A stretch of DNA of 39,970 bases from a virus, in UHGV virus genome UHGV-0404708; one strand, 5' to 3'. The notes beneath the pieces were generated by a model. That model worked only from the letters and a program-made list of their open reading frames with translations, was not told the DNA's origin and made no database searches. Of the stretch, positions 13,431 through 36,148 are shown one piece after another. Position 1 is the stretch's first letter. Every line of letters begins with the position of its first letter. Made by a program: the position numbers and the translations under genes.

Positions 13431-13727
13431 ATGCAAGCTATAGGATTCATTGTTTATATCGTCGTTGGTCTTTTTCAGTTGGCAGCAATTATGGCTGGGC
13501 TTGAATCATGGTGGGGATTGCACTGGATAATTGCAGCCCCCATCGCTTTCATCGTGAGCTATATTCCATTTGTTGGAGCGATTGTTGGTATGGTTGGCGC
13601 TGTGGATGTATGGCGGTGGGAGTGGTGGCAGGCTGGCCTTCTCTTCTTTGGTGGGATCATCTTTGCTATTGTCTGCGGTGGAATGTCATCATTTTTCGAA
13701 CGGCTATCATTCAGAAAAGGAACGTGA
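13431..13727 (+). CDS. small integral membrane protein
   Basis: 98 aa with 3-4 hydrophobic helices; SD AGGTGA; stop codon lies inside a GTGACATGTCAC palindrome. Confidence 0.6.
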   Translation: MQAIGFIVYIVVGLFQLAAIMAGLESWWGLHWIIAAPIAFIVSYIPFVGAIVGMVGAVDVWRWEWWQAGLLFFGGIIFAIVCGGMSSFFERLSFRKGT

Positions 13728-13735
13728 CATGTCAC
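13724..13735. repeat. GTGACATGTCAC palindrome, copy 1
   Basis: Perfect 12-bp palindrome containing the TGA stop of 13431..13727; directly 5' of a terminator. Confidence 0.8.
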
Positions 13736-13736
13736 A

Positions 13737-13760
13737 GGCCGCTTTCGCGGCCTTGTTTTT
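13737..13760 (+). terminator. rho-independent terminator
   Basis: GGCCGC-TTTC-GCGGCC followed by TTGTTTTT. Confidence 0.7.
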
Positions 13761-13920
13761 AACGAATGCCACCGCCGCCAGGGCGGGAATCCGCAGAACG
13801 CCCACCGCAGCGGGAGCCGTCAGCGGCAGTATCGCTGTCGTGCTGACAACGACCGGCAAAGGCCTGAGTTGAAGCTACCAGAGACAACAAAACGAACAGT
13901 GCAGCAAATGCTTTTTTCAT
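13759..13920 (-). CDS. small secreted peptide (Sec-type signal peptide, 31-aa Gly/Arg/Ser-rich mature part with 2 Cys)
   Basis: ATG at 13920 (in frame within track ORF 13759..13944); n-region MKK, hydrophobic core, AFA cleavage-like motif; weak SD; higher GC than neighbours. Confidence 0.35.
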   Translation of the reverse strand: MKKAFAALFVLLSLVASTQAFAGRCQHDSDTAADGSRCGGRSADSRPGGGGIR

Positions 13921-13991
13921 TTGAAATTTCCATCTATAAGCCACCTCAATGTGGCGTCAATGAGTGTAGCACTGACTTTTGTTTCATCCAC

Positions 13992-14012
13992 AAAAAAGCC
14001 CGCGCTGCGGGC
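13992..14012 (-). terminator. rho-independent terminator ending the minus-strand accessory operon
   Basis: Minus sense: GCCCGC-AGC-GCGGGC followed by TTTTTT; a few nt 3' of the stop of 14018..14650. Confidence 0.65.
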
Positions 14013-14017
14013 TTCTA

Positions 14018-14650
14018 TTAATGCAGTTTATCTTTGCTTATAACCAGTAGTCTGTGGGTATGCACATCTTTATCACTGCCCCAACAGAAATCAGCCCACT
14101 GGCTATAGAAATCATCCCATGATGTCATGAAGCTAAGAGGTCTATCTTCTTCAGAGCCATCTGAAACGTATACATTATATCCTGGGGTGTTTATAGCCCA
14201 AGAAATCATTCTTTCCCAGAATCTTCTCCCATCGATTGTTTGTTGCTCATCAGATACAACGATCGCATATTGCTCTAGGAAGAACTGAAAAAAAATCTGA
14301 GGCAAACCATGAACAGCACGGTCATGAATAACATTAGGCGTACGCCATACCATGATCTGCGTACATGTTCTTTTGGCTTCGACGATATCTTCCCGAAAGA
14401 TTAACTTAACCGCATACACCGTTTCTGGAGTATCGCTGGTAGTAATCATTCTGTAATGATCGCCATTACAAGATTTTACAAGGCGATAACCATAAGGTGT
14501 TGTGAATCCCGGAAGAACGAAATCAACCACACCTTTCGCTAAGTAGCTTTCGGTGTGACTAGTGTTCTTCTCAGACATGTTCAGTTTTCTATCGAAATCT
14601 GCTTCTGGGATAATGTATGGCATCGCTTTTCTTGTTGTATTTGTTCTCAT
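14018..14650 (-). CDS. hypothetical protein (unrecognised, accessory)
   Basis: Track ORF 14018..14662; ATG 14650 preferred (SD GGAGGA 5 nt upstream); AT-rich; own operator-like site upstream. Confidence 0.7.
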   Translation of the reverse strand: MRTNTTRKAMPYIIPEADFDRKLNMSEKNTSHTESYLAKGVVDFVLPGFTTPYGYRLVKSCNGDHYRMITTSDTPETVYAVKLIFREDIVEAKRTCTQIMVWRTPNVIHDRAVHGLPQIFFQFFLEQYAIVVSDEQQTIDGRRFWERMISWAINTPGYNVYVSDGSEEDRPLSFMTSWDDFYSQWADFCWGSDKDVHTHRLLVISKDKLH

Positions 14651-14708
14651 TTCGTCCTCCATGTTTGGCTACAGGACGCGTTTTGAAGGGAAGATTAAAA
14701 ATGCTTTC

Positions 14709-14723
14709 TTACCCTTGAGGTAA
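14709..14723. promoter_or_regulatory. operator-like palindrome TTACC-N5-GGTAA
   Basis: TTACCCTTGAGGTAA, exact; upstream of 14018..14650. Confidence 0.5.
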
Positions 14724-14760
14724 TAGTACGCTATTCACCCCCAGTCTGCAATCTGTACAG

Positions 14761-14787
14761 AATTATTTAAAGGCACATCCCTGTGCC
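14761..14787 (-). terminator. possible weak terminator between accessory genes
   Basis: Minus sense GGCACA-GGGA-TGTGCC followed by TTTAAATAATT; interrupted T-run. Confidence 0.35.
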
Positions 14788-14795
14788 GCCGCCCG

Positions 14796-15515
14796 TCAGA
14801 AGAACCCTGCCTTGTCGTTGATGTACTCCGCGTGCGTCTGGATATCACGCAGGCATTTGCTCACACCGACGATGTAGCAGAACATGGTGGTCAGCTCCGC
14901 CGCCGCGCCCGATACGTCGTGCCCGTCGTCCTGTAACTGGTTCAGCAGATTCATCAGCAGTGAGTTCTCAGTCAGGCCGAGAACACCAGACGGGGAATGA
15001 ATCAGGCTGCGGTAGCCGGGCTTCAGCGGGGCACTGTATTCTTTTTTGTCTTCCAGCTTGATCGCCTCCATAATGGCGGGCATGAATTTTTCAATTACCT
15101 GAGTGGCCTTTGATAAATCAGCTCCACCTGAGAGACGAACATCTCCACTGACATTTGCGGGTTTTCTGTCGAAGTAGCAATCTTCCAGTTTTTCGAAGAC
15201 CTCCCACGCTTTTTCAGTCTCAAGAATTTTCGCATGTCGTGCTGCACCGCGAGCGGTCCATAAGAAAAGATGACTTACTTTTGGTGCAATATTAAGCAAA
15301 CCTCTTTGAGAGGACTCGTTCTTAAATGCTCGTAATTCTTCGCCTGTCAGCTTGAAACAATGTTTTCCCTCAATGAATCGATCTGCATTTCGTTGATAGT
15401 TTTGACGAATCAGTTTGGGTTCTGTGTCATACAAATCAGCAAGCATTTCTGTAGTCATTACAGGGATGTTGCAATGAGTTGTTATCGGCAACTTATCAAT
15501 AGCTATATTACGCAT
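14796..15515 (-). CDS. ORF6N-domain protein with C-terminal domain paralogous to 16329..16586 (antirepressor-like)
   Basis: Track ORF 14796..15530; ATG 15515 preferred (SD GGAGG, 8-nt overlap with upstream stop); N-terminus fits the ORF6N/KilA-N-type DNA-binding pattern; C-terminal ~60 aa align with the 85-aa protein. Confidence 0.65.
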   Translation of the reverse strand: MRNIAIDKLPITTHCNIPVMTTEMLADLYDTEPKLIRQNYQRNADRFIEGKHCFKLTGEELRAFKNESSQRGLLNIAPKVSHLFLWTARGAARHAKILETEKAWEVFEKLEDCYFDRKPANVSGDVRLSGGADLSKATQVIEKFMPAIMEAIKLEDKKEYSAPLKPGYRSLIHSPSGVLGLTENSLLMNLLNQLQDDGHDVSGAAAELTTMFCYIVGVSKCLRDIQTHAEYINDKAGFF

Positions 15516-16014
15516 TTTCATTGCCTCCATCTTTCACGACGAAATAGCAATTATCTTTATAATCTAACTGGATGAACTTTATGTTTTCAGGGAGTTTTAC
15601 AGAAAGAGTTTTTGCACAAGCAAAACCAAAATCTGCGCCAGAAGCATCCATATACCTTAATAATTGTTTTAATGCTGAAGGAGAAAAAGTATCTACCTTC
15701 ACCTCAACAGGGTAACCATCTTTTGTTTTTAGGTCTGGTTGACCTGGTCCACCAAGTATTTCAGCGTTAAGGTATTTTGCTATTTCTGGATAAGCGTTGT
15801 ATTCAGAGCGTAGTTTTGCCTTGTTATCGACTGCTAGTTGCATAAGATGATCAAACAAATTGGTATCTAAATCTGCCCCTTCATCCCACATTCTATTTCT
15901 ACAGCTAATCAATTCACTGACCAGAGGTGCACTTTCTTGCCTTAGCATAAGAAGGAGTGGAGAATTAGAAATTAACCAATACAGATCGTCGTTTGAGATT
16001 TTTTGGCCTGGCAT
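15508..16014 (-). CDS. hypothetical protein, possible PD-(D/E)xK-like motif
   Basis: 168 aa; SD AGAGGT 7 nt before ATG; segment GQPDL...YPVEVK resembles a D...E-x-K nuclease motif (weak); translationally coupled to next gene. Confidence 0.6.
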   Translation of the reverse strand: MPGQKISNDDLYWLISNSPLLLMLRQESAPLVSELISCRNRMWDEGADLDTNLFDHLMQLAVDNKAKLRSEYNAYPEIAKYLNAEILGGPGQPDLKTKDGYPVEVKVDTFSPSALKQLLRYMDASGADFGFACAKTLSVKLPENIKFIQLDYKDNCYFVVKDGGNENA

Positions 16015-16328
16015 AGCGATACCTCTACTAGTAAGTTACCCACCACCGCAACGCCAATTGCTGGTGGTGAACTGGACAAGGTTGGCGTACCGGCCTAGTA
16101 GGTACCGGCGCACCTTTCGGTGCCCCTGCCCAGCCCACCATAATTCGGATATGACTGTGCTATACGCATAAAAAAACCACGTCTGGCGTGGTATGCGCCT
16201 ACTAGTAATCCGGGACGCCAATCCCGGCACTGGATTTTGCCAGTGCCCGATTACTATGGCACAAGAGGAGTGCGATGTAAATTTACCGCAAAGGTAAATA
16301 TAAGCACTCCACTTGGTAATTGCAAACC
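16015..16328 (-). ncRNA. heavily structured intergenic element (candidate ncRNA or cis-regulatory leader)
   Basis: 314 nt without convincing ORF between two minus-strand genes; at least five stem-loops, two with identical hexaloop, one GNRA-type loop, an internal hairpin plus T7 run, 8-bp direct repeat GTACCGGC x2. Confidence 0.35.
16170..16192 (-). terminator. intrinsic terminator-like hairpin inside the structured element
   Basis: Minus sense ACCACG-CCAGA-CGTGGT followed by TTTTTTT; T-tract itself flanked by complementary CGCATA/TATGCG. Confidence 0.4.
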
Positions 16329-16586
16329 TTATATGGTTTGTTTTCGTAATTGTTCGGCACAATAGTCGAGATGTGTTTGCAGATCCCGCATAGACATCTG
16401 TGAGCTGGTGACGTAGTTAATCAGTGCAGTCAGTTCGGCAAGTGGGCCATCGACATTAAATCCATCCTTATCGAGATCCCGGAGTAATTTCATCAAGTGC
16501 GATCCCTCCACCAGTGACCTGACGCCTCCCGGCGTGTGAATCCTTTCGGTAAATCCGTCTTCCAGTGGATAGTGATACCGCTGCAT
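16329..16586 (-). CDS. small protein (85 aa), paralog of the C-terminal domain of 14796..15515; LexA-controlled
   Basis: Track ORF 16329..16604 (TTG); ATG 16586 with SD GGAG 8 nt upstream; LexA box and sigma70-like promoter immediately upstream. Confidence 0.65.
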   Translation of the reverse strand: MQRYHYPLEDGFTERIHTPGGVRSLVEGSHLMKLLRDLDKDGFNVDGPLAELTALINYVTSSQMSMRDLQTHLDYCAEQLRKQTI

Positions 16587-16607
16587 CTTATCATCTCCAT
16601 GCAATAA

Positions 16608-16623
16608 CTGTATAAATATACAG
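16608..16623. promoter_or_regulatory. LexA (SOS) box
   Basis: CTGTATAAATATACAG; 20-mer AACTGTATAAATATACAGTA matches the E. coli consensus TACTGTATATATATACAGTA at 18/20. Confidence 0.8.
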
Positions 16624-16632
16624 TACCAAATA

Positions 16633-16661
16633 ATTTATTGTCTATCCAGCACGTTTTGCAA
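16633..16661 (-). promoter_or_regulatory. sigma70-like promoter upstream of the LexA box
   Basis: Minus sense -35 TTGCAA (16656-16661), 17-nt spacer, -10 ATAAAT (16633-16638); LexA box starts about 9 nt downstream of -10. Confidence 0.5.
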
Positions 16662-16662
16662 A

Positions 16663-16677
16663 TCACCTGAAAGGTAA
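16663..16677. promoter_or_regulatory. operator-like palindrome (one mismatch)
   Basis: TCACCTGAAAGGTAA; abuts the -35 of the LexA-controlled promoter. Confidence 0.4.
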
Positions 16678-16705
16678 TATCTATTCGTGTCCATGCTGTT
16701 TTTAC

Positions 16706-16715
16706 CCATATATGG
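16706..16715. promoter_or_regulatory. CCATATATGG palindrome (CCAYATRTGG family)
   Basis: Perfect 10-bp palindrome with T-rich flank, about 65 bp upstream of tail fiber ATG. Confidence 0.35.
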
Positions 16716-16781
16716 TTTTTCAGGTAATAAAATAACCCAGCATGCGGCGCAACGGGTGCTGCGACTATCTGGAGATTTAAA

Positions 16782-18803
16782 ATGACGGTCTCAACCGAAG
16801 TTGGCCACAACGAATACACTGGTAACGGCGTTACGACTACATTCCCTTATACATTCAGGGTTTTCGATAAATCTGATCTGGTAGTGCAGATAGTTGACCT
16901 TGAAGAGAATATCACTGTCCTGGTTCTTGATACCGATTACTCAGTAACCGGGGTGGGGGGATACAATGGTGGCAATGTAATGCTGAGGACAGCGTTAACT
17001 TCTGGTTATCGTATTTTTGTATCGCGTGAGCTGCCTGTTACGCAGGAAACAGATCTGCGCAATCAGGGAAAGTTTCTGGCAGAGGTGCATGAGGATGCAT
17101 TTGATAAGCTGACGATGCTTATTCAGCAAGTATTTTATAACCTGAGCAAGGTAATAAAAGTTCCTGAATCAGGGAACTGGTTGGTTCCAACAATTAGGTT
17201 AAGAAAGAATAAAATCTTTGCATGGGACGAAGAGGGAAATCCAATTGCTGTATCACCTGAATCAGGTAGTGCCTCCGATGTAATGATTGAGCTGGCAAAA
17301 TCATCCGGGGCTGGGTTGATTGGCACAACGTCGGGGGGGACCGTTCAATCAGTGCTGGATGACTGTCATGCAAGGCTCATCACATGTGAGCGCAACAGCC
17401 GGGTGGAAAATTTTTACACGCTGGCGGAAACCTGCACAGCGGAGCTTTTATCGCTGAATGCCCCGGAGGCATATGACAAATCCATTACGCTGACGGTCAA
17501 TGAGGAACTGACCACAGACTATACCGGTCCGGTCACAGGTCATTGCAGCATCGGTAATCCGCAGAACTACACCATTGCGATGTGTACGAGCACAACTCTG
17601 GAATATCAGGTTTCCTCGGTGGTACTGGAGAGTGACGGCACGTTCAGTTTCGCCAGAAGCTGGACGGGGGCTAAGTCTTTTAAACTGTATCGTACATCAA
17701 ATAACGGTCTGGTAACCGTCTGGGAAGATCCGCTGTGTATACGTTCTTACCGGATGCCATCGGATGCCGGAGACGAAACGGTAAGGGTAATGAAAGACCG
17801 TACGTACACCTACGACCAGGCGGTGTCGGCCATTGCCCTGATGGCGCAGGGGCACAGTCAGACTGAGCGTTTTGTTCGCGGGTTGTGTGCGATTGTGGGT
17901 AGTGGTGGTAGCGAGGGGAGTGTGCCTTTTTTCGTGAACCGCATGTCAGCGCAGACATCGTCACAGTATTACCGGACGGGAAACGCAGCGTGGGTGGCGT
18001 ATGCGCTGGCGTATTATCTGCTGAAATATCCGGACGGTGAAATGGCCGTTGTTGCCCGGGATAAACTGACGCAGTGCGCAGAATGGATTGAAACGTTCAG
18101 AGTGGCAGACAACGGAGATATTCGTTATGGGTTGTATACATCCGGTAGCGGACGGTATCTGGATGGCGTCTTTTACCCTGATTTTAAAGCAGACTGGTGC
18201 ACATCGGAGCACCAGTTTGATTTGTGGTTTCTGTTTGACCTGATGGGGCGGGTGGGCTTCACCGGCTACGCTGAAAAGGCGAAAGCCCTGGCGGATGCCA
18301 TTATGGAAAAGCTGTGGGTGGAGGATGAAGGGCGATTTTATGCCGGGATGCGAACCACCGGGCCTGACAAGGCCTCACCACTGGACTGTGCAAGCTGGGG
18401 CGGGCTGTTTGTGTCCAATATCGATATGGAAAAAGCCCGGCGGTGTTTTACTTACCTGGACAGATTCTGGTACGCCACGCACGATGCGACAGGGTACACG
18501 CCTTATCATCCGGAATATGGCTACCCGAATAAACAGCGGGGAGTCTGGGTGGAGGGCAGTGCAGGCGTGGCATTGCTGGCCCGTAGACTGGGAGATGATG
18601 CCACCGCGATGGATATTCTGGCGAGGCTGGCACCACTGCGCACACGTTATGGTTACATTGATTCAAGCGATTATCCAGATAATGATGACATGCCGCCGTG
18701 GCCCTCTTCCTGCAACACGGCCTGGATGATACTGGCATGCGATCCGCAGGGGTTCTGGAACGTTGGGGTAAGTAGTCTGTCTGGACGTTATTATAGGTAT
18801 TGA
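16782..18803 (+). CDS. tail fiber/tailspike with T7-type N-terminal attachment domain and a distinct C-terminal domain
   Basis: 673 aa; N-terminus (YTGNGVTTTFPYTF...DTDY) follows the T7 gp17 N-domain pattern; C-terminal ~380 aa Trp/Tyr-rich. Confidence 0.75.
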   Translation: MTVSTEVGHNEYTGNGVTTTFPYTFRVFDKSDLVVQIVDLEENITVLVLDTDYSVTGVGGYNGGNVMLRTALTSGYRIFVSRELPVTQETDLRNQGKFLAEVHEDAFDKLTMLIQQVFYNLSKVIKVPESGNWLVPTIRLRKNKIFAWDEEGNPIAVSPESGSASDVMIELAKSSGAGLIGTTSGGTVQSVLDDCHARLITCERNSRVENFYTLAETCTAELLSLNAPEAYDKSITLTVNEELTTDYTGPVTGHCSIGNPQNYTIAMCTSTTLEYQVSSVVLESDGTFSFARSWTGAKSFKLYRTSNNGLVTVWEDPLCIRSYRMPSDAGDETVRVMKDRTYTYDQAVSAIALMAQGHSQTERFVRGLCAIVGSGGSEGSVPFFVNRMSAQTSSQYYRTGNAAWVAYALAYYLLKYPDGEMAVVARDKLTQCAEWIETFRVADNGDIRYGLYTSGSGRYLDGVFYPDFKADWCTSEHQFDLWFLFDLMGRVGFTGYAEKAKALADAIMEKLWVEDEGRFYAGMRTTGPDKASPLDCASWGGLFVSNIDMEKARRCFTYLDRFWYATHDATGYTPYHPEYGYPNKQRGVWVEGSAGVALLARRLGDDATAMDILARLAPLRTRYGYIDSSDYPDNDDMPPWPSSCNTAWMILACDPQGFWNVGVSSLSGRYYRY

Positions 18804-18826
18804 TTCCTGATAAAGTAATAATTTAA

Positions 18827-18836
18827 CCACATATGG
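18827..18836. promoter_or_regulatory. CCACATATGG motif (CCAYATRTGG family)
   Basis: Within a ~25-bp block nearly identical, in inverted orientation, to 37171-37200; upstream of lysis genes. Confidence 0.35.
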
Positions 18837-18899
18837 TTTATTGTGTATGATGAACTCATCAATAAGTGGGTTCTTCATGCACATTAAACGGTGGTTTTT

Positions 18900-19304
18900 A
18901 TGTCAGTTCAGCTAACCAGTGAGTCTTTAAATCAGTGGCTTAGTGCGAGTTCTCTTGTTGCGGTGATAGCAGGGGTTCCTCCAGAGGTGGCTTTGGGAGC
19001 TTTGGCTGGGGCGGTAATTTTTGTTACCTCAGCCATCGAGTATCCCATTCATCGCCGGGTTCTCCTGTCTATGCTCAGCTTCCTCTGCGGCCTTCTCTTT
19101 TACAAACCTACAGCATCCATCCTTATCGGTGTAGCCAGCCTGATCCCTACCATCACGCATGACTCTTTCGAGAAAGGGATCGTCTTCTCTGCTGGCGCAT
19201 TTGTGTCGTCAATTGTCGCCGTGCGAATTGGTATATGGCTTTATCACCGTTCCGATAATCCACGAGAGTTAATTCCGGGGAGAAAAGACGATGGTAACGC
19301 ATGA
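18900..19304 (+). CDS. holin-like multi-pass membrane protein
   Basis: Track ORF 18891..19304 (GTG); ATG 18900 preferred; 3-4 hydrophobic helices; first gene of lysis cassette. Confidence 0.5.
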   Translation: MSVQLTSESLNQWLSASSLVAVIAGVPPEVALGALAGAVIFVTSAIEYPIHRRVLLSMLSFLCGLLFYKPTASILIGVASLIPTITHDSFEKGIVFSAGAFVSSIVAVRIGIWLYHRSDNPRELIPGRKDDGNA

Positions 19305-19599
19305 CCTTTTTTTACTTATCACCAATGCAGTTATTTGTACTGGCATAGCAATTCGCGTTGTCACATTCCGGCGTAACGGCTCTCAACATCGAAGATGGGG
19401 AGGGTGGCTTGCTTATTTCCTTATTGTTGCTGCGGCCAGTATTCCTGTTCGTGTCGTCTATGCAATCTGGTTACGCACGCCAATGGCTGTGGATTTATCT
19501 GAGGTCATTATCAACGCTGTCATGCTTGCTGCGGTTATTAAAACGCGCGGTAACGTCGTTCAGATTTTCAAAATAACGAGGTCTAAACATGGAGATTAA
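19291..19599 (+). CDS. holin/antiholin-like membrane protein
   Basis: 102 aa, three hydrophobic segments; between membrane protein and endolysin. Confidence 0.5.
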
Positions 19600-20697: not shown

Positions 20698-20870
20698 CAT
20701 GGCATTTTTCATGGTACTGATTTTCGGTGACGGTATATAAAACGGTATGGTGAAAATCAAGTTGCGGAAAGTTGTTATCAGTCAATTGGTTATGTATGTC
20801 GTAAATAATTGAGTGGGAATGATTAACAGCTAACTCATAGCAAATCATTCCTATTCAGATGCCAACTCAA

Positions 20871-26598: not shown

Positions 26599-26619
26599 TA
26601 CTTGCTGAAAACTATAGTT

Positions 26620-27204
26620 TTATTGTTTGCTTTTTTCGTTCTGGTTGATGACAAATTCAATGTAACTTTCGATCTTTGCTTTCTCGGTTTCGGGTAACAA
26701 TGCGTAGCGCGAGCGGTCATAGTTGATGGTCGCAGGGTCGTGCGGGTGAATCAGTAATTCATAGCCGTGACGCCCGAATGCGGATGCAACATTCTCCAGG
26801 GTGGAAATGGAAACGCTGACCTCATTGTTTAACAGGCGGCTGATTGTCACCTGGGCGACGCCGGATGCGCGGTGAAGTTTTCCCTGCGTTGAAAGGTCGC
26901 GGCTTTCGCTCATCCAGCGTTCCAGGTTGTGAGCCGCCAGCTGACCAATGTCGCTTGGGCCGACAGGCTGAAAACCTTCCTGAGAAAGCGAGCGATCGAT
27001 ATCAAGCCAGTTACGGGGTTTATTGGCGGCAGCTTCAATTTTTCGTGCAACCTGGTCGCCGATAACCTTCTTGCCAAGAGCCCAGCGGTTTACCAGATTT
27101 GCCTGAGTTCCAAGTTTTTCTGCCATCCGCGTCTGAACACCATTGAATTCACGGTCGATCAAGTCGTTGAGATTTTGCCTGCGGACGTCCTGGATACTTT
27201 TCAT
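26620..27204 (-). CDS. immunity repressor with two HTH-type segments, no autopeptidase domain
   Basis: 194 aa; HTH-like segments near aa 24-46 and 120-155; divergent from Cro-like gene across operator region; no Ala-Gly...Ser...Lys LexA-type cleavage module. Confidence 0.7.
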   Translation of the reverse strand: MKSIQDVRRQNLNDLIDREFNGVQTRMAEKLGTQANLVNRWALGKKVIGDQVARKIEAAANKPRNWLDIDRSLSQEGFQPVGPSDIGQLAAHNLERWMSESRDLSTQGKLHRASGVAQVTISRLLNNEVSVSISTLENVASAFGRHGYELLIHPHDPATINYDRSRYALLPETEKAKIESYIEFVINQNEKSKQ

Positions 27205-28789: not shown

Positions 28790-29546
28790 TGAGTACGATC
28801 GCTTTCGTGGTGGGCATGACCACTCGACGGCGGTTGCTTCTGCTGACGATGAAAGGGCAAAGAAGGAGCAGGTTGCAAGAATTTTCAACGAAATGTTTGT
28901 CCAGTTACAGGCTGCATTTCCAGGCAGCATCGCTGCTATCAGCGAGCAAGGAAAGCTAAACGAATTTCGAAAACAATGGATTCTTGCGTTTCTGGAGAAT
29001 GGGATCACAACAATGGAACAGGTTAACGCTGGTATGCGCCACGCCCGCGCCAGTGAATCTCCGTTCTGGCCGTCGCCAGGGCAATTCATCAAGTGGTGTA
29101 AAGACAGCAAGATGGTTCTTGGCGTCACCATTGACGATGTGATGGCGGAGTTTCACCGGTACAGCAAGGAAAAAAGTTTATATCCTGGTGGTCCAGAAAG
29201 ATTCCCGTGGCGACATCCGGTTATGTACTGGGTTGTATGTGATACCCGCCGCGCAATGTATCAGCGCCAGCTTAGCGAGATTGAGGTTGAGAAACACGCG
29301 CGCAGGCTGCTCGATGATTGGGCTAAAAAGGTGGCTTCCGGACAGCAGATACCCGATCCGGTGATCAGCATACAGGCAAAGCCAGAGCCCATGAGTACAC
29401 CTCCGGACACAGGGAGAGACGTTTACCATCCACCAGGGCGAAGTTTCGGGTGCATGCCTAACGCCGCCACCCTCGGGGGAATAACACCGGCGCAGTGGCT
29501 GATGGAGGAATACAGGCGGGGAAAGGCGGCAGGATTTATCAAGTAA
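28764..29546 (+). CDS. replication protein P-like (helicase loader)
   Basis: Track ORF 28752..29546; ATG 28764; central block WILAFLENGITTMEQVNAGMRHAR...SPGQFIKWC closely matches the lambda P pattern as I recall it. Confidence 0.75.
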   Translation: MKSTPELLNEYDRFRGGHDHSTAVASADDERAKKEQVARIFNEMFVQLQAAFPGSIAAISEQGKLNEFRKQWILAFLENGITTMEQVNAGMRHARASESPFWPSPGQFIKWCKDSKMVLGVTIDDVMAEFHRYSKEKSLYPGGPERFPWRHPVMYWVVCDTRRAMYQRQLSEIEVEKHARRLLDDWAKKVASGQQIPDPVISIQAKPEPMSTPPDTGRDVYHPPGRSFGCMPNAATLGGITPAQWLMEEYRRGKAAGFIK

Positions 29547-29583
29547 TACCAGCGCGATAGCGCATTTTTTTACGCCTCAACAA

Positions 29584-29598
29584 TTACCTATAAGGTAA
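29584..29598. promoter_or_regulatory. operator-like palindrome
   Basis: TTACCTATAAGGTAA exact. Confidence 0.5.
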
Positions 29599-29645
29599 CA
29601 AAATATTCTAAACTCTATTGATTTCGTGTCTTATGTGGTTTTTAA

Positions 29646-29660
29646 TTACCTTAGAGGTAA
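29646..29660. promoter_or_regulatory. operator-like palindrome overlapping the SD of 29664..30008
   Basis: TTACCTTAGAGGTAA exact; right half-site doubles as GAGGT Shine-Dalgarno 3 nt before ATG. Confidence 0.45.
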
Positions 29661-29663
29661 ATC

Positions 29664-30008
29664 ATGAGAAAACAGATACAGGCTCTTGGTCGACTCAAAA
29701 CAGGCCAGATGAACAAAACAGAATCTGCGTATTGCCAGCACCTTGAGCTGCGTAAACGTGCAGGGGAAATCGCCTGGTATCGATTCGAGGGTATCAAGCT
29801 GCGGTTGGCTGACAACACGTTCTATACGCCCGATTTCGCTGTGATGCTCGCCACCGGCGAGATGGAACTGCACGAAGTGAAAGGTTTCTGGACCGACGAC
29901 GCCAGGGTGAAAACCAAAGTCGCAGCAGACCAGTACCCGTTTCGCATCATCGGGGTAACGGTTAAGACAAAGAAAGCGGGTGGTGGGTGGAGCATCGAAG
30001 AGTTCTGA
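29664..30008 (+). CDS. DUF1064-like small nuclease-fold protein
   Basis: 114 aa; YRFEGIKLRL...FYTPDF...HEVKG pattern as in lambdoid DUF1064 proteins. Confidence 0.55.
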   Translation: MRKQIQALGRLKTGQMNKTESAYCQHLELRKRAGEIAWYRFEGIKLRLADNTFYTPDFAVMLATGEMELHEVKGFWTDDARVKTKVAADQYPFRIIGVTVKTKKAGGGWSIEEF

Positions 30009-30069
30009 ATCGACGATCTTTTTAGTTATCAATGTAATCAATAAGTTATGTGGATAAGCGAGGGTAAAG

Positions 30070-30630
30070 ATGGAAAGTAATATCAAAGGGTTAGTTGCCG
30101 CCGGGTATGAGATGGCTTCGGAACTGAAAGCAGAATGTGGTGCCGTTGATATGCGTAGTGTGGCAAAGCTGATCAGCGATTTGGCAACGCAACTGGAAGT
30201 GCAACTGGTGCGTGCTAATGCGCTGGCAGAAGACCACCAGAAAGCGATTGAGTCAATTAAGCAGGCTGATGCAGCTGTTAAGTTGGCACACGAGAAGTTT
30301 TCGACGCTGGCGGCGGAGAATGCAGCCCTGAAAGAATCTGAGCGAGCATTCGATGAGATGTGTGCCGAGGAACACGGAGATAATTGGGTTAGCGAATTAA
30401 CGGAGACTCCAGCCACCGACGCTTTCCTGGCTGAAGTACGGGCGCAGGGGGTGGATGCTGCTATAGACGCTGCAAAAAATCTGGTGGCTCAGGAATATGA
30501 GTATAAGGATTTCAAAGCGGCGCAGAGTGATTGCTGTATGTTTCCTGGTTCAGACCTGGTAGGGAAGGTTGAAATGACCGAGTGGTTAGTTGACTTTGCC
30601 GCAGAGCTTCGCAAAGGAGGCAACCAGTGA
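30070..30630 (+). CDS. hypothetical protein (coiled-coil, ea/nin-type accessory)
   Basis: 186-aa ORF with SD GAGGG; stop overlaps next start. Confidence 0.55.
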   Translation: MESNIKGLVAAGYEMASELKAECGAVDMRSVAKLISDLATQLEVQLVRANALAEDHQKAIESIKQADAAVKLAHEKFSTLAAENAALKESERAFDEMCAEEHGDNWVSELTETPATDAFLAEVRAQGVDAAIDAAKNLVAQEYEYKDFKAAQSDCCMFPGSDLVGKVEMTEWLVDFAAELRKGGNQ

Positions 30631-31259
30631 ACAAGATTGACTATCAGGCACTGCGTGAGGCGGCAGAGCGTGCAATTCCGGCAATGGAACGCCTGTTAAT
30701 GTTGCCAGTTGATGATGATCTGATAAGCGAGCAGGAACTTAAAGATAGCGGTGTTGATATTGATGCGCTCAACGCCTTCAAAATTCTGGCCGGACCAGAA
30801 ACCGTGCTGGCGCTACTGGATGAACGGGAAAGAAACCAGCAATACATCAAATCTCGCGACCAGGAGAACGATGATATTGCGCTAACGGTAGGGAAGCTGT
30901 TAATCGAAAACGGTCAGCTTGTTGCCGATACGCTACGCCACTTAGCTGATAACGAAATCGACTCTGATTATTTTGCTATCACCTCAACTAATGAGAACGG
31001 TACTGAAATTGATCATGAGATGTCTATTACCGATTACGCACTGCAAGCTGCCGGAACTGTAGACGAATTGGTTGCGGCGCTGGAATCCGCAGAGAAGCGC
31101 ATTGCAGAACTGGAAGCGCGGGAAATACTGCTCCCGGTACGTAGCAGCATGCTTCATCGAACAGATTTTCACGATGATTACCAAACGGTAATGGCATACA
31201 AAGTTTCTGAAGTCATCGATGCAATCCGCGCTACTGGCATTCGCATCAAAGGAGAGTGA
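30627..31259 (+). CDS. hypothetical protein ending in junction motif GIRIKGE
   Basis: 210 aa; C-terminus encoded by repeated junction sequence. Confidence 0.55.
   Translation: MNKIDYQALREAAERAIPAMERLLMLPVDDDLISEQELKDSGVDIDALNAFKILAGPETVLALLDERERNQQYIKSRDQENDDIALTVGKLLIENGQLVADTLRHLADNEIDSDYFAITSTNENGTEIDHEMSITDYALQAAGTVDELVAALESAEKRIAELEAREILLPVRSSMLHRTDFHDDYQTVMAYKVSEVIDAIRATGIRIKGE
31236..31259. repeat. module-junction repeat, copy 1
   Basis: GGCATTCGCATCAAAGGAGAGTGA: last codons plus stop of upstream gene and SD of next. Confidence 0.8.
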
Positions 31260-31264
31260 GTGAT

Positions 31265-31462
31265 ATGGATAAAAACACCACTGCTTACTGGAATCTGTCA
31301 CTTGATACCGAATGCCCCAAATGTGGTCACAATTTCGATCTGCTCTGTGATGCTGATTTCTGGGAGTTTTCTGGAGCAAAACAGGCATGTGAAGAAATAA
31401 AAGGTTACGAAACATGCTGCCCAGAATGTAACCATGAATTTAAAACAGATTTTGTGTATTGA
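31265..31462 (+). CDS. small zinc-ribbon protein
   Basis: Track ORF 31256..31462 (GTG); ATG 31265; two CxxC pairs (CPKCGH...CCPECNH). Confidence 0.5.
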   Translation: MDKNTTAYWNLSLDTECPKCGHNFDLLCDADFWEFSGAKQACEEIKGYETCCPECNHEFKTDFVY

Positions 31463-31472
31463 GGCATAACGA

Positions 31473-31943
31473 ATGACCACTTTTACTAAAGAACAATTAA
31501 TTGATCATATTAATGATCGCAAAGATGTCCGTCAGAGAATGTTGGAAACTGCGACGATTTCTTCTGGATTCAGAGAATATCTTGAAAGAGAGCTTGCTAC
31601 CGATCAGATTGCCCTAGCTTCGCTGGAAGCAGAACCGATGGCATGGCGATATCGCTACGTGAAAAAAAGCATTACGGACTCACAGGGGGAGCCGTGGGTT
31701 GGTGACTGGAAATATGTACCGACAAAAGAGGATTGCAACGACAGACCGAACTATGAAATTCAGGCGTTATTCACTGCCCCGCCTGTGCCACTGACACCAG
31801 AAGGATTGATTAAAGCAGTGCGCTTCTATGAACAGGTTAAGCGTGAAAATCCGCCAGTCGAAACCGGAGTATGGAAAGACGCTGTTGACTGGGTGCTCAA
31901 AGAGGCTTGCCAGGCTGTAAACATTGGCATCAAAGGAGAGTGA
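31473..31943 (+). CDS. hypothetical protein, N-terminal paralog of 32592..33176
   Basis: 156 aa; shares MTT(F/I)TK start and IALASLEA(E/K)P motif with 32592..33176; ends in junction motif. Confidence 0.55.
   Translation: MTTFTKEQLIDHINDRKDVRQRMLETATISSGFREYLERELATDQIALASLEAEPMAWRYRYVKKSITDSQGEPWVGDWKYVPTKEDCNDRPNYEIQALFTAPPVPLTPEGLIKAVRFYEQVKRENPPVETGVWKDAVDWVLKEACQAVNIGIKGE
31922..31943. repeat. module-junction repeat, copy 2
   Basis: CATTGGCATCAAAGGAGAGTGA, 21/22 identical to copies 1 and 3. Confidence 0.8.
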
Positions 31944-31945
31944 GA

Positions 31946-32437
31946 GTGCAGATTTCACCGGTTACTCTTCGTGTTGCGAAGGCGTTTATATCCAGACATC
32001 ACCGACACAATAAACCCCCGGTGGGGCATAAATTCAGCATTGGTCTGAGAAATGATGCCGGAGAATTGATAGGTGTGGCGACAGCCGGTAGACCTGTTGC
32101 ACGACATTTGGACGATGGATTAACGCTTGAAGTAAATCGCACATGTACCACAGGAGAACGCAACGCTAACAGCGCGCTTTATGGTGCTGTCTGGCGGGCA
32201 GCAAAAGCTATGGGTTATCAACGTTGTATTACGTACACCCAGGCAGATGAATCAGGAGCATCTCTTCGCGCAGCTGGTTTTGTTCGTGTGAAAGAGCTTC
32301 CTCCAAGAAAAAGCTGGGCGGAATCAAGCGTCGCCTTGCGGAGTAAACGCGATCCGGTCGGAAACGGTGGTGTTCCTCGTGTGCTCTGGGAAATCAGGAG
32401 AATGAGTACCACTGGCATTCGCATCAAAGGAGAGTGA
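31946..32437 (+). CDS. hypothetical protein (possible acyltransferase-like), ends in junction motif
   Basis: Track ORF 31907..32437 overlaps upstream gene; GTG 31946 just after the upstream stop with junction SD 7 nt before. Confidence 0.5.
   Translation: MQISPVTLRVAKAFISRHHRHNKPPVGHKFSIGLRNDAGELIGVATAGRPVARHLDDGLTLEVNRTCTTGERNANSALYGAVWRAAKAMGYQRCITYTQADESGASLRAAGFVRVKELPPRKSWAESSVALRSKRDPVGNGGVPRVLWEIRRMSTTGIRIKGE
32414..32437. repeat. module-junction repeat, copy 3
   Basis: GGCATTCGCATCAAAGGAGAGTGA identical to copy 1. Confidence 0.8.
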
Positions 32438-32438
32438 T

Positions 32439-32588
32439 ATGGCTAAGTACATCGTGACTATCGAAGGATTTAATGATTGCAAGGTTGTTGAGTTTGAAGC
32501 AGACACGCCAGAGGATGCCGAAGAAATAGGCAGAGACATATTCTATGAAGAATGCAACTACGGCGTATCACCTGCTACAGAGGACTAA
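32439..32588 (+). CDS. small hypothetical protein (49 aa)
   Basis: Not in track; ATG 32439 with junction-repeat SD GGAGAG 6 nt upstream; translation MAKYIVTIEGFNDCKVVEF... Confidence 0.4.
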   Translation: MAKYIVTIEGFNDCKVVEFEADTPEDAEEIGRDIFYEECNYGVSPATED

Positions 32589-32591
32589 CAC

Positions 32592-33176
32592 ATGACCACT
32601 ATTACCAAAGGGCGACTGCTGACAATCAAGCAGTGGCGCGAAACATACGGACCGGGTAGCAACGTTGTACTGCCAGCAGAAGAAGCGGAAGAACTGGCAC
32701 GAATTGCTCTGGCATCGCTCGAAGCAAAACCAATAGGTGCATTCCACATTGCAGAACAGCAAGTTGACGGCACAAGTGACTACCTCAAGGATGGAGAATG
32801 GCCTATTGATAATGGGACAATTGAAGTATACGCCGCCCCTCCAGTGCCAGTAGTACCGGAAGAAAAACCAATGCCTAATCCTCTTAGCATGTACGCGGTT
32901 GATGCTGTTGCCGCTATTGCAGAGGTGAGAGGCTGGAACGCCTGTCGTGCCGCTATGCTTCAGAGTCAAGGTAATTGCATTAAGGATGGTTGGATAAGCT
33001 GTAGTGAGCGAATGCCCGCTCAAGATGATTGGATTTTAATTTATTCAAAGCACGGTGAGTATATGGCAGGACAGGTGCAAGGGGAATACGTGGAGTTGAG
33101 CGATGGCACTTTATCGTGGTTAGGGAACGCCTTGTTCTGGATGCAGCTACCAGAACCGCCGCAGGAGGTGAAGTGA
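32592..33176 (+). CDS. hypothetical protein with DUF551-like C-terminal domain
   Basis: 194 aa; N-terminus paralogous to 31473..31943; C-terminus W..CSERMP...WMQLPEPP pattern. Confidence 0.55.
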   Translation: MTTITKGRLLTIKQWRETYGPGSNVVLPAEEAEELARIALASLEAKPIGAFHIAEQQVDGTSDYLKDGEWPIDNGTIEVYAAPPVPVVPEEKPMPNPLSMYAVDAVAAIAEVRGWNACRAAMLQSQGNCIKDGWISCSERMPAQDDWILIYSKHGEYMAGQVQGEYVELSDGTLSWLGNALFWMQLPEPPQEVK

Positions 33177-33544
33177 TGGACTATTCACAGTTAAGTGATT
33201 TTGAAATTAACAGAATGGTAGGAGACATAATTTTTAAAGGCCTTTGGGCGTGTAAACCGGAAACATCAGGGAATAACACCAACAAATGGTATTACGGAAA
33301 TACTGATACAACTTTTGAGCCATTAAACCCTTTACCTGACTACTGCAATGATCCGAGAGCTGCATGGCCTGTAATCGCAAAACATCAGATCAGCATATGT
33401 GCATACGAAAGAAATAATCATGGAATGAAGAATGAATATTGGTGGGAGGCGGATAGATTTTGTGAATTTATTACCATAGACAATAACCCACTACGCGCCG
33501 CCATGATTGTCTTTCTCATGATGCAGGAAAATCAGAATGGCTAA
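33176..33544 (+). CDS. hypothetical protein
   Basis: Track ORF 33116..33544; ATG 33176 overlaps upstream stop (TGATG). Confidence 0.5.
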   Translation: MDYSQLSDFEINRMVGDIIFKGLWACKPETSGNNTNKWYYGNTDTTFEPLNPLPDYCNDPRAAWPVIAKHQISICAYERNNHGMKNEYWWEADRFCEFITIDNNPLRAAMIVFLMMQENQNG

Positions 33545-33875
33545 ATCAGCAGCAGAGCGCAAAGCCGCTCAGAGAGCCAGACAAGCTGCATCTGGTGTGC
33601 GTAAGCTGGAGATTGTGCTTGATGCTCAGGAAATTGAAATGCTGGAGCGTAACTGTGCCACGCGTCGCCCCGGGCGTGCGCCTTACGAATTTGGTGAGTA
33701 TATAGCGTTACTGATCCGCCAGGATGATGCACGCGTGCACGGGCGTATAAAATCTATCAGCAGAAAACGTTGCGGTAAGTGTGGCGAGAGAGTTCCAGTT
33801 AATTCATGTCCGTGTAATGGTGACTCACAATGCTGGGTGACTAAAGGCTGGCATGAAACGAAATTAATAGTGTGA
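33537..33875 (+). CDS. Arg-rich, Cys-cluster protein (candidate late-gene regulator)
   Basis: 112 aa; basic N-terminus, C-terminal CGKCGERVPVNSCPCNG; last gene before terminase operon; stop codon inside GTGACATGTCAC palindrome. Confidence 0.45.
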   Translation: MAKSAAERKAAQRARQAASGVRKLEIVLDAQEIEMLERNCATRRPGRAPYEFGEYIALLIRQDDARVHGRIKSISRKRCGKCGERVPVNSCPCNGDSQCWVTKGWHETKLIV

Positions 33876-33883
33876 CATGTCAC
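33872..33883. repeat. GTGACATGTCAC palindrome, copy 2
   Basis: Perfect 12-bp palindrome containing the TGA stop of 33537..33875, same register as copy 1. Confidence 0.8.
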
Positions 33884-33924
33884 GAGTAGATTATGCATGA
33901 TGAATTTGATGGGTTTTGAATACT

Positions 33925-33950
33925 GCCGCCAACTATGGCGGCTTTATTTT
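33925..33950 (+). terminator. rho-independent terminator before terminase operon
   Basis: GCCGCC-AACTAT-GGCGGC followed by TTTATTTT. Confidence 0.7.
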
Positions 33951-33961
33951 GCATGGTACTA

Positions 33962-33976
33962 TTACCACAACGGTAA
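33962..33976. promoter_or_regulatory. operator-like palindrome upstream of terminase genes
   Basis: TTACCACAACGGTAA exact; a weaker copy TTACCACGGTGGTTA follows at 33980-33994. Confidence 0.5.
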
Positions 33977-33993
33977 CTATTACCACGGTGGTT

Positions 33994-34590
33994 ATGATGC
34001 CTGCTGAACCTAAAACCTATAAACGCAAATCAACGCAATTTAAGCCACTAACAGCAATGCAGGAGGCTTATTGCCAGTCATACATCAAAACGCCTGAAAA
34101 CCAGACTCAGGCAGCGATTAACGCAGGATTTTCCCCAAATACAGCGGCAGTTAAAGCCAGTGTCATGATGCGCGATGAACGCATTCAAAAACGGATTGCC
34201 GAGTTGATGGAGGAGCGCAACAAACGAATACGCGTCAGTGCTGATTACGTTCTCATGCGGCTGGTGGAGATCGACCAGATGGACGTGATTGATATCCTCA
34301 ACGACGATGGGAGCCTTAAGCCAATCCGCGAGTGGCCGAAAATCTGGCGCACTACGCTTAGCGGCTTTGATCTGTCATCGACCATCATGAACATGAACGA
34401 GGATTCGATAGAGACAATCCTCAAAAAAATTAAATGGCCTGACAAGGTGAAGAACCTCGAACTGATTGGTAAGCACGTCGACGTCAACGCATTCAAAGAA
34501 CGCCTAGATGTTAATGTGAATGTGACAATTGCTGATCGCATAGCAGCAGCCAGGAAGCGACTCAAAGAACGTCAGGATGGTAATCAGTGA
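33994..34590 (+). CDS. terS: terminase small subunit
   Basis: Track ORF 33916..34590; ATG 33994/33997; small-terminase-like composition; stop overlaps terL start. Confidence 0.7.
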   Translation: MMPAEPKTYKRKSTQFKPLTAMQEAYCQSYIKTPENQTQAAINAGFSPNTAAVKASVMMRDERIQKRIAELMEERNKRIRVSADYVLMRLVEIDQMDVIDILNDDGSLKPIREWPKIWRTTLSGFDLSSTIMNMNEDSIETILKKIKWPDKVKNLELIGKHVDVNAFKERLDVNVNVTIADRIAAARKRLKERQDGNQ

Positions 34591-36062
34591 CAGATACAGT
34601 GTTATCTCCTGAAGAGCAGTTGATCGAGGATATTGCAGGGTTTACTCACGATCCGCTTGGTTATGCCATCTATGCGTTCCCGTGGGGGGAAGAGGGGACT
34701 GAACTGGCACATGCTACTGGCCCACGTCAGTGGCAGGCTGATGCGTTCCGAGAGATACGTGATCACCTGCAGAATCCAGAGACGCGCTATCAGCCGCTTA
34801 TGCTGGCACGCGCTTCTGGTCACGGTATTGGTAAATCCGCATTCATTTCAATGCTGATCAACTGGGGCATGTCCACTTGCGAGGATTGTAAGGTCGTGGT
34901 GACCGCCAACACCGACAACCAGCTACGAACGAAGACCTGGCCGGAAATTATCAAGTGGTCGAACCTTGCTATCACGAAAGACTGGTTTACCTGTACCGCT
35001 ACCGCGATGTACAGCAATGACCCTGGGCACGACAAGCGGTGGCGAGCTGACGCAATCCCCTGGTCTGAGCACAACACTGAGGCATTCGCCGGACTACACA
35101 ACGAGCGCAAACGCATCATCGTGGTATTCGATGAAGCGTCGAACATTGCGGATCTGGTGTGGGAAGTTGCTGAGGGGGCGCTTACGGACGAAGACACTGA
35201 GATTATCTGGGTGGCGTTCGGAAACCCTACACGTAACACCGGACGTTTCCGCGAATGTTTCCGCAAATATAAACACCGCTGGAAAACTGCGCAGATTGAC
35301 AGCCGAACGGTGGAAGGCACTAACAAACAGCAGTTGCAGAAATGGGTTGATGACTACGGGGAAGACAGCGACTTCGTTAAAATCCGTGTGCGCGGCATAT
35401 TCCCTGATGCATCTGAATTGCAGTTTATCCCTACCGGTCTTACTGATGAGGCAATGAAACGGGTGGTAACCGCTGCGCAGGTGGCGCATGCTCCGGTGAT
35501 AATCGGCGTTGACCCGGCATACTCCGGCGTTGATGACGCTGTGATATACCTGCGGCAGGGGCTGCACAGTAAGGTGCTATGGACTGGCAACAAGACCACT
35601 GACGATCTGATTATGGCGAAGCGTATCGCTGACTTTGAAGACCAGTACCAGGCTGACGCGGTGTTCATCGACTTCGGTTACGGAACCGGTCTGAAGTCAA
35701 TCGGTGACGGATGGGGTCGTACATGGCAACTTGTTCCGTTCGGTGGCGCGTCTACTGACCCGCAGATGCTCAACAAGCGTGGGGAGATGTTCAATTCATG
35801 CAAGACATGGCTGAGGCTGGGCGGCATGCTGGATGACCAGGAAACAGCAGACGACCTGTCGGCGGCAGAGTACAAAGTTCGAGTGGATGGTAAAATCGTT
35901 ATCGAACCGAAGGAAGATATCAAGGAGCGGCTTGGGCGTTCGCCGGGTAAAGGCGATGCGCTACTGCTGACGTTTGCGTTCCCTGTGTCTAAGCGTCTGC
36001 GAATTCCCGGGCAGCAGAACCAGCAAGGCAAGGCCATCACAGATTACGATCCCTATGCTTAA
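34587..36062 (+). CDS. terL: terminase large subunit
   Basis: 491 aa, GTG start overlapping terS stop; Walker A-like GHGIGKS; nuclease-type C-terminal half. Confidence 0.9.
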   Translation: MTDTVLSPEEQLIEDIAGFTHDPLGYAIYAFPWGEEGTELAHATGPRQWQADAFREIRDHLQNPETRYQPLMLARASGHGIGKSAFISMLINWGMSTCEDCKVVVTANTDNQLRTKTWPEIIKWSNLAITKDWFTCTATAMYSNDPGHDKRWRADAIPWSEHNTEAFAGLHNERKRIIVVFDEASNIADLVWEVAEGALTDEDTEIIWVAFGNPTRNTGRFRECFRKYKHRWKTAQIDSRTVEGTNKQQLQKWVDDYGEDSDFVKIRVRGIFPDASELQFIPTGLTDEAMKRVVTAAQVAHAPVIIGVDPAYSGVDDAVIYLRQGLHSKVLWTGNKTTDDLIMAKRIADFEDQYQADAVFIDFGYGTGLKSIGDGWGRTWQLVPFGGASTDPQMLNKRGEMFNSCKTWLRLGGMLDDQETADDLSAAEYKVRVDGKIVIEPKEDIKERLGRSPGKGDALLLTFAFPVSKRLRIPGQQNQQGKAITDYDPYA

Positions 36063-36112
36063 TCCGCTGGTTGGGATAATGTCGTTGATATCCTCTGATG
36101 AGGATAAAACAA

Positions 36113-36139
36113 AGCCAGCTCATCGGCTGGCTGTTTGTG
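36113..36139. terminator. bidirectional terminator-like hairpin
   Basis: AGCCAGC-loop-GCTGGCT with GTTTGTG on plus side and TTGTTTTA on minus side; between convergent terL and 36153..36524. Confidence 0.5.
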
Positions 36140-36148
36140 ACATGTCAC
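36137..36148. repeat. GTGACATGTCAC palindrome, copy 3
   Basis: Perfect 12-bp palindrome 5 nt beyond the stop of minus-strand gene 36153..36524, adjacent to terminator hairpin. Confidence 0.8.

Follow-up and report, generated by a model that had tools for sequence, protein, structure and literature searches.

A palindrome at the operon ends of an epsilon15-like phage, probably the DNA site of a small phage-encoded protein

Ribbon-helix-helix (RHH) proteins with palindromic targets are a familiar kind, and include the repressors P22 Arc, Mnt, MetJ and CopG, the antitoxins ParD, TacA and FitA, and also TraM and TraY. Escherichia coli MatP, the organiser of the Ter macrodomain, has its own target, matS, and the consensus of that site is the 13-bp GTGACRNYGTCAC, or GTGAC-RNY-GTCAC, with a spacer of 3 bp (PMC6907758). 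Similarly, phages of the epsilon15 and SPC32H type, and by analogy P1 with its dispersed C1 operators, carry many scattered copies of one palindrome for a single phage protein. In this article, I will discuss a further palindrome, the 12-bp GTGACATGTCAC, which occurs three times in the virus genome UHGV-0404708, a stretch of 39,970 nucleotides that was analysed as a whole and is called the window throughout; it spans nearly the entire genome of a temperate E. coli podophage of the epsilon15-like kind (Uetakevirus), with phiV10, TL-2011b and phiv142-3 among its close relatives. I will argue that the three copies are probably (at a rough probability of 0.8) the cognate DNA sites of a small protein encoded by the same phage at 33537..33875, a pairing inferred from the co-occurrence of gene and sites, from site variants that are specific to protein clades and from the predicted fold of the protein.

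Each of the described systems resembles the new one in part. The phage half-sites are identical to those of matS; however, matS is 13 bp long with a 3-bp spacer, whereas the phage site is 12 bp (14 with its flanks) with a 2-bp spacer, and the phage protein is encoded by the phage, with its sites on phage DNA. The likeness to the RHH repressors lies in the predicted fold, the small size and the short palindromic target, but the window sites stand at operon 3' ends and over the protein's own stop codon rather than over a promoter, the phage protein adds a C-terminal zinc knuckle, and the cassette of gene and site is common to podo-, myo- and siphoviruses. The epsilon15-type operators share with the palindrome the principle of one protein and many dispersed sites, and differ from it in sequence (TTACC-N5-GGTAA), in their helix-turn-helix repressor (26620..27204) and in their placement at operon starts, whereas GTGACATGTCAC marks operon ends. 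The idea that the palindromes are themselves such operators fails on sequence, and none of the 15 operators of the window coincides with a copy.

A preliminary description of this DNA, made from its letters alone, had reported three exact copies of the palindrome, each at a gene 3' end next to a terminator, and both statements are borne out: an exact search of the whole window returns 13724-13735, 33872-33883 and 36137-36148 and no other copy, and the order of stop codon, palindrome and terminator is common to all three. This is the sole perfect 12-bp palindrome that recurs in the window, and 100 dinucleotide-preserving shuffles gave a mean of 0.01 copies, none of them reaching three. Copies 1 and 2 each supply, in the same register, the TGA stop codon of an open reading frame (ORF), at 13725-13727 and 33873-33875, respectively, just as had been described, and terminator-like hairpins, which had been placed within 0-45 bp, were called by the scan 0, 41 and 4 nt from copies 1, 2 and 3. 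Allowing one mismatch adds a single intragenic copy, GTGACATGGCAC at 39176. The features that matter to the argument are these:

13724..13735, no strand: site 1, CGTGACATGTCACA, holding the TGA of ORF 13431..13727, where the long structural operon (+) ends and meets the convergent antirepressor/moron operon (-)
13736..13753, plus strand: intrinsic terminator hairpin abutting site 1, with a stem that is invariant and a loop that varies in six phages
33537..33875, plus strand: candidate binding-protein gene, 112 aa, of the epsilon15 gp49 / N15 gp46 / ZF40 gp22 family (phrog_536), last gene of the rightward early operon
33872..33883, no strand: site 2, TGTGACATGTCACG, overlapping the TGA of the candidate binding-protein gene at the end of the early operon, directly before the terminase genes; right edge of the gene-plus-site cassette
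33925..33942, plus strand: intrinsic terminator 41 nt past site 2, separating the early operon from that of the terminase
36113..36132, minus strand as called by the scan: terminator hairpin between the large terminase gene (34587..36062, plus strand) and the convergent gene 36153..36524 (minus strand)
36137..36148, no strand: site 3, TGTGACATGTCACG, past the large terminase gene; read on the minus strand, it lies 4 nt past the stop of the convergent 36153..36524 (Phage_gp49_66 family) and 4 nt before the terminator
39176..39187, no strand: possible weak fourth site, CGTGACATGGCACA, one mismatch, inside the Bbp19-like gene 39124..39420; status uncertain

Among close relatives the arrangement is conserved in sequence and in position. 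The Salmonella phages epsilon15 and SPN1S, in which the flanks have clearly diverged, carry the perfect 12-mer at all three equivalent positions, and phiV10, BUCT554 and 66FD have perfect or one-mismatch copies there. When site 1 is aligned across six phages, the 12-mer and the adjoining terminator stem are invariant while the terminator loop and both flanks vary, and in IMG/VR contigs of the E. coli lineage at least 77 of 80 loci keep site 2 intact and 47 of 55 keep site 3. The epsilon15 and phiV10 records annotate the neighbouring terminators and leave the palindromes unmarked. The copy at 39176-39187 has the pyrimidine and purine flanks described below; phiV10 and 33 of 80 related loci share it, whereas epsilon15 lacks it. 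It could represent a weak fourth site, or else coding constraint may have kept it by coincidence. SPN1S has an extra one-mismatch site of its own, GTGACATGTCAT at 26722-26733, over the TGA stop of Rz at the end of the lysis operon and at the edge of the attachment-site region; its counterpart in epsilon15 (26618-26629) is degenerate with two mismatches, and the window has none. As a separate matter, the phiV10 record breaks inside copy 2, between GTGA and CATGTTAC, and this might be taken for a genome end; the break falls at the stop codon with which the last annotated gene ends, and a cos or pac end is therefore not assumed.

The strongest argument comes from phages that are otherwise unrelated. 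By tblastn, homologues of the 33537..33875 product occur in 154 phage records inside and outside Uetakevirus, including the Pectobacterium myovirus ZF40, Yersinia P2-like phages, the linear-plasmid prophages phiKO2 and N15, and Vibrio and Aeromonas phages. Representatives were examined from every homologue-bearing group except the Aeromonas phages, and each of those representatives has several GTGAC-NN-GTCAC sites:

ZF40: three perfect copies of GTGACATGTCAC, one of them 3 nt past the stop of the homologue
Yersinia phage (P2-like): a pair of sites 33 bp apart
phiKO2: three copies of GTGAC(TG/CA)GTCAC, one of them holding the TGA stop of the homologue in the register seen in the window
Vibrio K303: three copies of GTGAC(A/G)CGTCAC

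Nearly all homologue-bearing phages have sites of this form. A larger sample of 240 IMG/VR loci that encode a homologue (4.1 Mb; four main groups and two Vibrio loci) contains 381 GTGAC-N2-GTCAC sites against about 3.9 expected, and this arrangement comes first among all 1024 five-base inverted repeats at spacings of 0 to 4; spacers of 0, 1, 3 or 4 give 0-2 sites per group, and the everted arrangement 0-3. The central dinucleotide follows the protein clade, being AT in the epsilon15-, ZF40- and P2-like groups (127 of 128 epsilon15-like sites) and TG/CA in 103 of 108 N15-like sites. The placement relative to the stop codon, noted first in the window, is likewise kept: in the N15-like loci with a locatable gene end the stop is embedded in the site in 50 of 50, in the register of site 2, and in the ZF40-type group a site lies 0-10 nt from the stop of the gene in 36 of 46. 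A logo of 216 distinct sequence contexts finds information in the flanks only as a pyrimidine at -1 and a purine at +12, so the full site is a 14-bp dyad, YGTGACNNGTCACR or YGTGAC-NN-GTCACR, and such symmetric flanks are what a dyad protein site would show.

Now considering the negatives, phage P2 itself has neither the gene nor the site, and 80 P2-like loci (portal-gene centred, ranked by similarity to coliphage P2, 1.43 Mb) contain no gene and no site, whereas 57 of 61 gene-positive P2-like loci have a site. Together with the shuffle and locus counts, these gene-negative controls exclude a chance origin of the palindromes. One caution does weigh on the pairing: shared descent links the loci of each group, so raw totals suggest more separate observations than there are. 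The evidence that counts as independent comes from about five lineages in which gene and site recur, from central bases that differ by clade and from the matched negatives. Of the roles first proposed for the palindrome, that of a site for a dimeric protein is thus strongly supported where the protein is the phage's own, with the product of 33537..33875 as the candidate, while the co-occurrence of gene and site speaks against the suggestion that it might be a host protein.

That host reading deserves a fuller hearing, because MatP is such an obvious binder and would tie the phage DNA to the terminus-organising or division machinery of the host. All motif-bearing phages found infect Enterobacterales, Vibrio or Aeromonas, and these hosts presumably encode MatP. 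Furthermore, the half-sites are those of the matS consensus (PMC6907758), and MatP is a structural neighbour of the phage protein, so that a fold of this kind is able to read a site of this kind. What tells against MatP is first the spacer, strictly 2 bp in the phages, with the matS spacing GTGAC-N3-GTCAC absent from the four gene-positive groups and present once in all 250 loci (4.5 Mb). The sites also occur only where the phage gene is present, and the 80 P2-like loci without sites presumably come from enterobacterial hosts; and the central bases follow the clade of the phage protein even though the N15/phiKO2-like and epsilon15-like phages examined both infect Enterobacteriaceae. Binding by a host protein is accordingly very improbable. 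The palindrome is also not a member of the matS/MatP system, given its 2-bp spacer, the lack of sequence similarity between the proteins and its dependence on a gene of the phage and not of the host. Another host candidate is SlmA, a TetR-family protein whose sites, GTGAGTACTCAC, are likewise 12-bp palindromes with the outer bases GTGA...TCAC; the central four bases differ, and the co-occurrence of phage gene and sites disfavours this host binder too.

The same data bear on whether the palindrome acts as RNA. Three transcripts carry it in their 3' untranslated end, with a terminator stem 0 and 4 nt away at sites 1 and 3, respectively, and predicted folds stack a 4-bp hairpin on the terminator, so one can picture a mini-hairpin 5' of the terminator that tunes termination, protects the 3' end or serves as the RNA processing site that had been proposed at the outset. 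However, the hairpin alone folds at -1.2 kcal/mol, equal to shuffled sequence (z -0.03), which also sets aside an intrinsic terminator or a structural palindrome of the repetitive extragenic (REP) type, with a stable hairpin and compensatory changes. Conservation falls on the sequence and the 2-bp spacing and not on pairing, as the sequence is invariant with no co-variation while the neighbouring terminator loop does vary, and the N15-type GTGACTGGTCAC keeps the half-sites although its central two bases no longer match their own reverse complement. In addition, N15-like sites lie away from terminators and several sites elsewhere are inside ORFs or upstream of promoters. I regard an RNA element, a processing site included, as very unlikely.

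The gene and its site (window 33525-33885) appear to form one mosaic cassette that is common to otherwise unrelated phages, and to move as one, because the site nearly always lies over the stop of the gene or within 10 nt of it. Comparison of the window with 126 relatives supplies the edges: ends of BLAST segments pile up at the start of the gp49-like gene and at 33885, 2 nt past the palindrome. Such edges could also mean that the palindrome is a short conserved linker at which heterologous modules recombine, with no need of a protein partner, and this account can point to further breakpoints at 36137-36158, to the similarity with TL-2011b that begins at window 13723, the very edge of site 1, and to the flanks of site 1, which vary independently on each side. 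Yet a conserved island is expected to show breakpoints whatever its function, and the linker explains neither why the sites depend on one particular gene nor why half-site, spacer and flanks are constrained in the manner of a protein site; intra-ORF sites and the P2-like tandem pairs 33 bp apart do not fit it either. Recombination thus looks like a by-product and the linker an improbable explanation. The early suggestion of a module-boundary recombination sequence holds in part as a description, with breakpoints at the palindromes, but probably not as a function, given the strict dependence on the protein gene. That the cassette crosses podo-, myo- and siphovirus lineages implies a function that is portable and probably of general use to temperate phages.

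The candidate protein is homologous to epsilon15 gp49, and its matches are to phrog_536 ('transcriptional regulator') and to no Pfam family. An AlphaFold model built on a 62-sequence alignment of diverse family members has a mean predicted local distance difference test (pLDDT) score of 91.6 (an earlier prediction from a shallow alignment, at 62.6, was not used), and it lays out a basic helix at residues 5-19, an extended segment at 20-29, helices at 30-42 and 52-74, a cysteine-rich knuckle at 75-99 and a short helix at 100-107. The protein is therewith confidently predicted to consist of a basic N-terminal helix, an RHH domain, for which the model has the order of beta-strand, helix and helix, and a zinc knuckle. 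Conserved in the family are C79, C82 and C99 with one variable cysteine, while a second CxxC pair is not conserved. Against an RHH assignment it must be said that the Pfam RHH models (RHH_5, RHH_1, RepB-RCR_reg) match only 5 of the 62 family members, and weakly so, with a best E of 0.013. A weak NCBIfam match (E 0.051) links the family to the LexA-regulated protein PRK11675, which we take to be E. coli YbfE. Sequence profile searches found no solved homologue, Foldseek against the PDB and viral models returned nothing significant except a self-like fragment, and no simple code from beta-strand residue to central base can be read from the family alignment.

Two distant resemblances are worth following. 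MatP is among the six best structural neighbours of the model, but sequence similarity between the two is undetectable (hhalign probability 0.5%; shuffle z about 0), in a profile-profile comparison for which the MatP homologue search gave near-identical sequences only and so limited the depth of the MatP profile. The protein does not belong to the MatP families (Pfam PF06303 and PF17414): the N-terminal four-helix bundle and C-terminal coiled coil of MatP are not in the phage protein, which has the zinc knuckle instead, and a distant common origin of the DNA-reading module is conceivable. The other resemblance is to the DksA/TraR zinc-finger proteins, binders of the RNA polymerase secondary channel, with which the C-terminal 60 residues share a CxxCGxx(I/L)P motif and the order of helix, zinc and helix; a profile search of the PDB gives weak matches of this half (about 60 residues) to YbiI and TraR (E 0.035-0.057), and hhalign against TraR a probability of 46%. 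The phage family is, in contrast, without the conserved second CxxC and without the free N-terminal coiled-coil tip with its acidic residues. No free tip for the RNA polymerase secondary channel is to be found, since the aligned helix 52-74 is the second RHH helix and has more protein N-terminal to it, and no family member matched zf-dskA_traR (PF01258) among the matches listed, which cover 25 of the 44 matched Pfam families. I treat this resemblance as a lead, not a finding.

What, then, would a bound dimer do? In the window, each of the three sites separates a stop codon from an intrinsic terminator, and each marks a border between transcription units, namely early operon and terminase operon, terminase and convergent gene, and structural operon and convergent antirepressor operon, and on this ground I propose, tentatively and by inference only, that the dimer acts as a two-way boundary or roadblock at operon ends. 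Being symmetric, it would stop polymerases arriving from either side, reinforce the terminators and shield each module from the transcription of its neighbour. In epsilon15-like phages 84% of distinct sites have a terminator-like hairpin no more than 60 nt away, as do 6% of random positions, and it is the repressor operators that mark the starts of operons. The best explanation as a whole is likely to be that the palindromes are cognate sites of the small phage protein, with this boundary role preferred for the bound dimer. The predicted dimer would straddle the dyad and insert a two-stranded beta-sheet into the major groove, as the 14-bp symmetry and the co-occurrence suggest; the protein, made late in the early operon, would first load in cis on the site at the 3' end of its own gene and then occupy the two distal sites, and the site over its stop codon could exert negative feedback on its own mRNA.

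Several observations in other lineages weigh against a boundary role. Terminator adjacency is lineage-specific: it is no higher than background in N15-like sites (4% against 9% of random positions) and modest in P2-like sites (23% against 4%) and in the group found with the ZF40 query, which includes epsilon15-like phages of other hosts (31% against 8%). That the bound protein acts on termination or antitermination, as first suggested, is a possible role, which the adjacency fits in epsilon15-like phages and does not fit in N15-like ones. There are also sites inside ORFs, at 5125 and 7622 of ZF40, in phiKO2 repA and at 29484 of a Klebsiella prophage, and intergenic 3' ends may be just the places where a 14-bp site is tolerated. 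Furthermore, phiKO2 has a promoter-like element on the minus strand, TTGACG-18-TAAAGT, whose -35 is preceded at a distance of 25 nt by the site at 31182-31193 and which is followed by the antirepressor operon with its leader and terminator; this site looks like an ordinary operator and hints, for N15-like phages, at a regulatory link to anti-immunity control.

From these sites it is a short step to a protein that binds as proposed and acts as a conventional transcription factor or a DNA-looping architectural protein, with no boundary at terminators, and I hold an ordinary operator or looping to be about as likely as the boundary, hence no more than tentative. Besides the phiKO2 site and the uneven adjacency, the pair in the P2-like gene carriers suits such a role: GTGACATGGCAC, there the usual weaker partner, is followed by GTGACATGTCAC with 33 bp between their starts (10749-10793 and 11675-11719 in two of the loci). 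The pair has the cos region on one side and the portal-operon terminator on the other, and is upstream of a promoter-like region. These tandem sites are three helical turns apart, as expected of cooperative dimers of dimers, a further likeness to the RHH repressors; their distance to the gene varies from 0.5 to 4.5 kb with the cargo inserted between. Each genome has two to four dispersed sites, which is also what looping proteins would have. In the window and its close relatives, however, there is no recognisable promoter near the three sites, all of them at convergent or tandem operon ends. The palindrome does contain GTGACA, which resembles a -35 hexamer, and a promoter was considered; no copy has a consistent -10, matches of 9/12 occur at background frequency, and at site 2 nothing promoter-like appears but a weak 9/12 match that the palindrome itself makes up.

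Antitermination in the manner of lambda Q invites comparison, as both arrangements have a regulator gene, a site at its 3' end, a terminator (41 nt on, in the window) and then terminase and late genes, and a site that adjoins its gene favours action in cis. However, site 2 and the terminator have no promoter between them, there is no Q-family match, rightward transcription would meet the terminator before it reaches site 3, and ZF40 and phiKO2 carry this protein besides a Q-like antiterminator; a Q-type module is rejected. It is a rather unlikely but concrete thought that the protein is a DNA-tethered factor, its RHH domain parked on operon-end sites while a TraR/DksA-like zinc domain engages arriving RNA polymerase and sets termination or read-through, or else that it is a phage counterpart of MatP/matS, organising phage DNA or interfering with the terminus or division machinery of the host.

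I found no description of the 12-mer, of its N15 variant or of the generalised motif in the phage literature searched, which did not cover the epsilon15 genome paper, and nothing relevant in the literature on epsilon15/phiV10, SPC32H, ZF40 or RHH roadblocks. What appears to be new is the pairing of family and site, the position of the sites at the 3' ends of operons and across the stop codon of the protein's own gene, and the spread of the cassette across podo-, myo- and siphoviruses. A family that is annotated only as 'hypothetical' or 'transcriptional regulator' (phrog_536), and that occurs in such well-studied phages as epsilon15, phiV10, SPN1S, N15, phiKO2 and ZF40, is hereby assigned a putative DNA target and with it a testable activity. 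The identity with matS half-sites and the possible RNA-polymerase-binding zinc domain provide two concrete and unusual hypotheses, and epsilon15-like genomes can be seen as punctuated by two families of palindromes, with repressor operators at the starts of operons and GTGACATGTCAC sites at their ends.

The second of these families is plentiful in the window, where TTACC-N5-GGTAA has 15 hits at up to one mismatch against 0.7 expected; the epsilon15 record annotates the counterparts as 'repressor' binding sites. Opposite to the placement of GTGACATGTCAC, these operators lie mostly between ORFs near operon starts:

14709, 16283, 16663, 20958, 26486, 26548, 27260, 27308, 27645, 29584, 29646, 33962, 33980 and 37122: 15-bp matches to TTACC-N5-GGTAA
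17969: a further hit, inside the tailspike ORF

Adjoining the operator at 16663 is a perfect LexA-box-like sequence, CTGTATAAATATACAG, at 16608-16623, in the gap that separates the tailspike gene from the minus-strand ORFs behind the Bro-N/antirepressor-type genes, so that an antirepressor may be under SOS control. Such control of an antirepressor is reportedly found in the related phage SPC32H.

The overlapping operators at 33962 and 33980 lie between copy 2 of the palindrome and the gene for the small terminase subunit, and they bear on where that gene begins. Its longest ORF starts at TTG 33916, as annotated in phiV10, and this start would put the terminator at 33925-33942 and both operators within coding sequence. 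As the match to Pfam does not begin until residue 45, the true start is probably the ATG near 33997.

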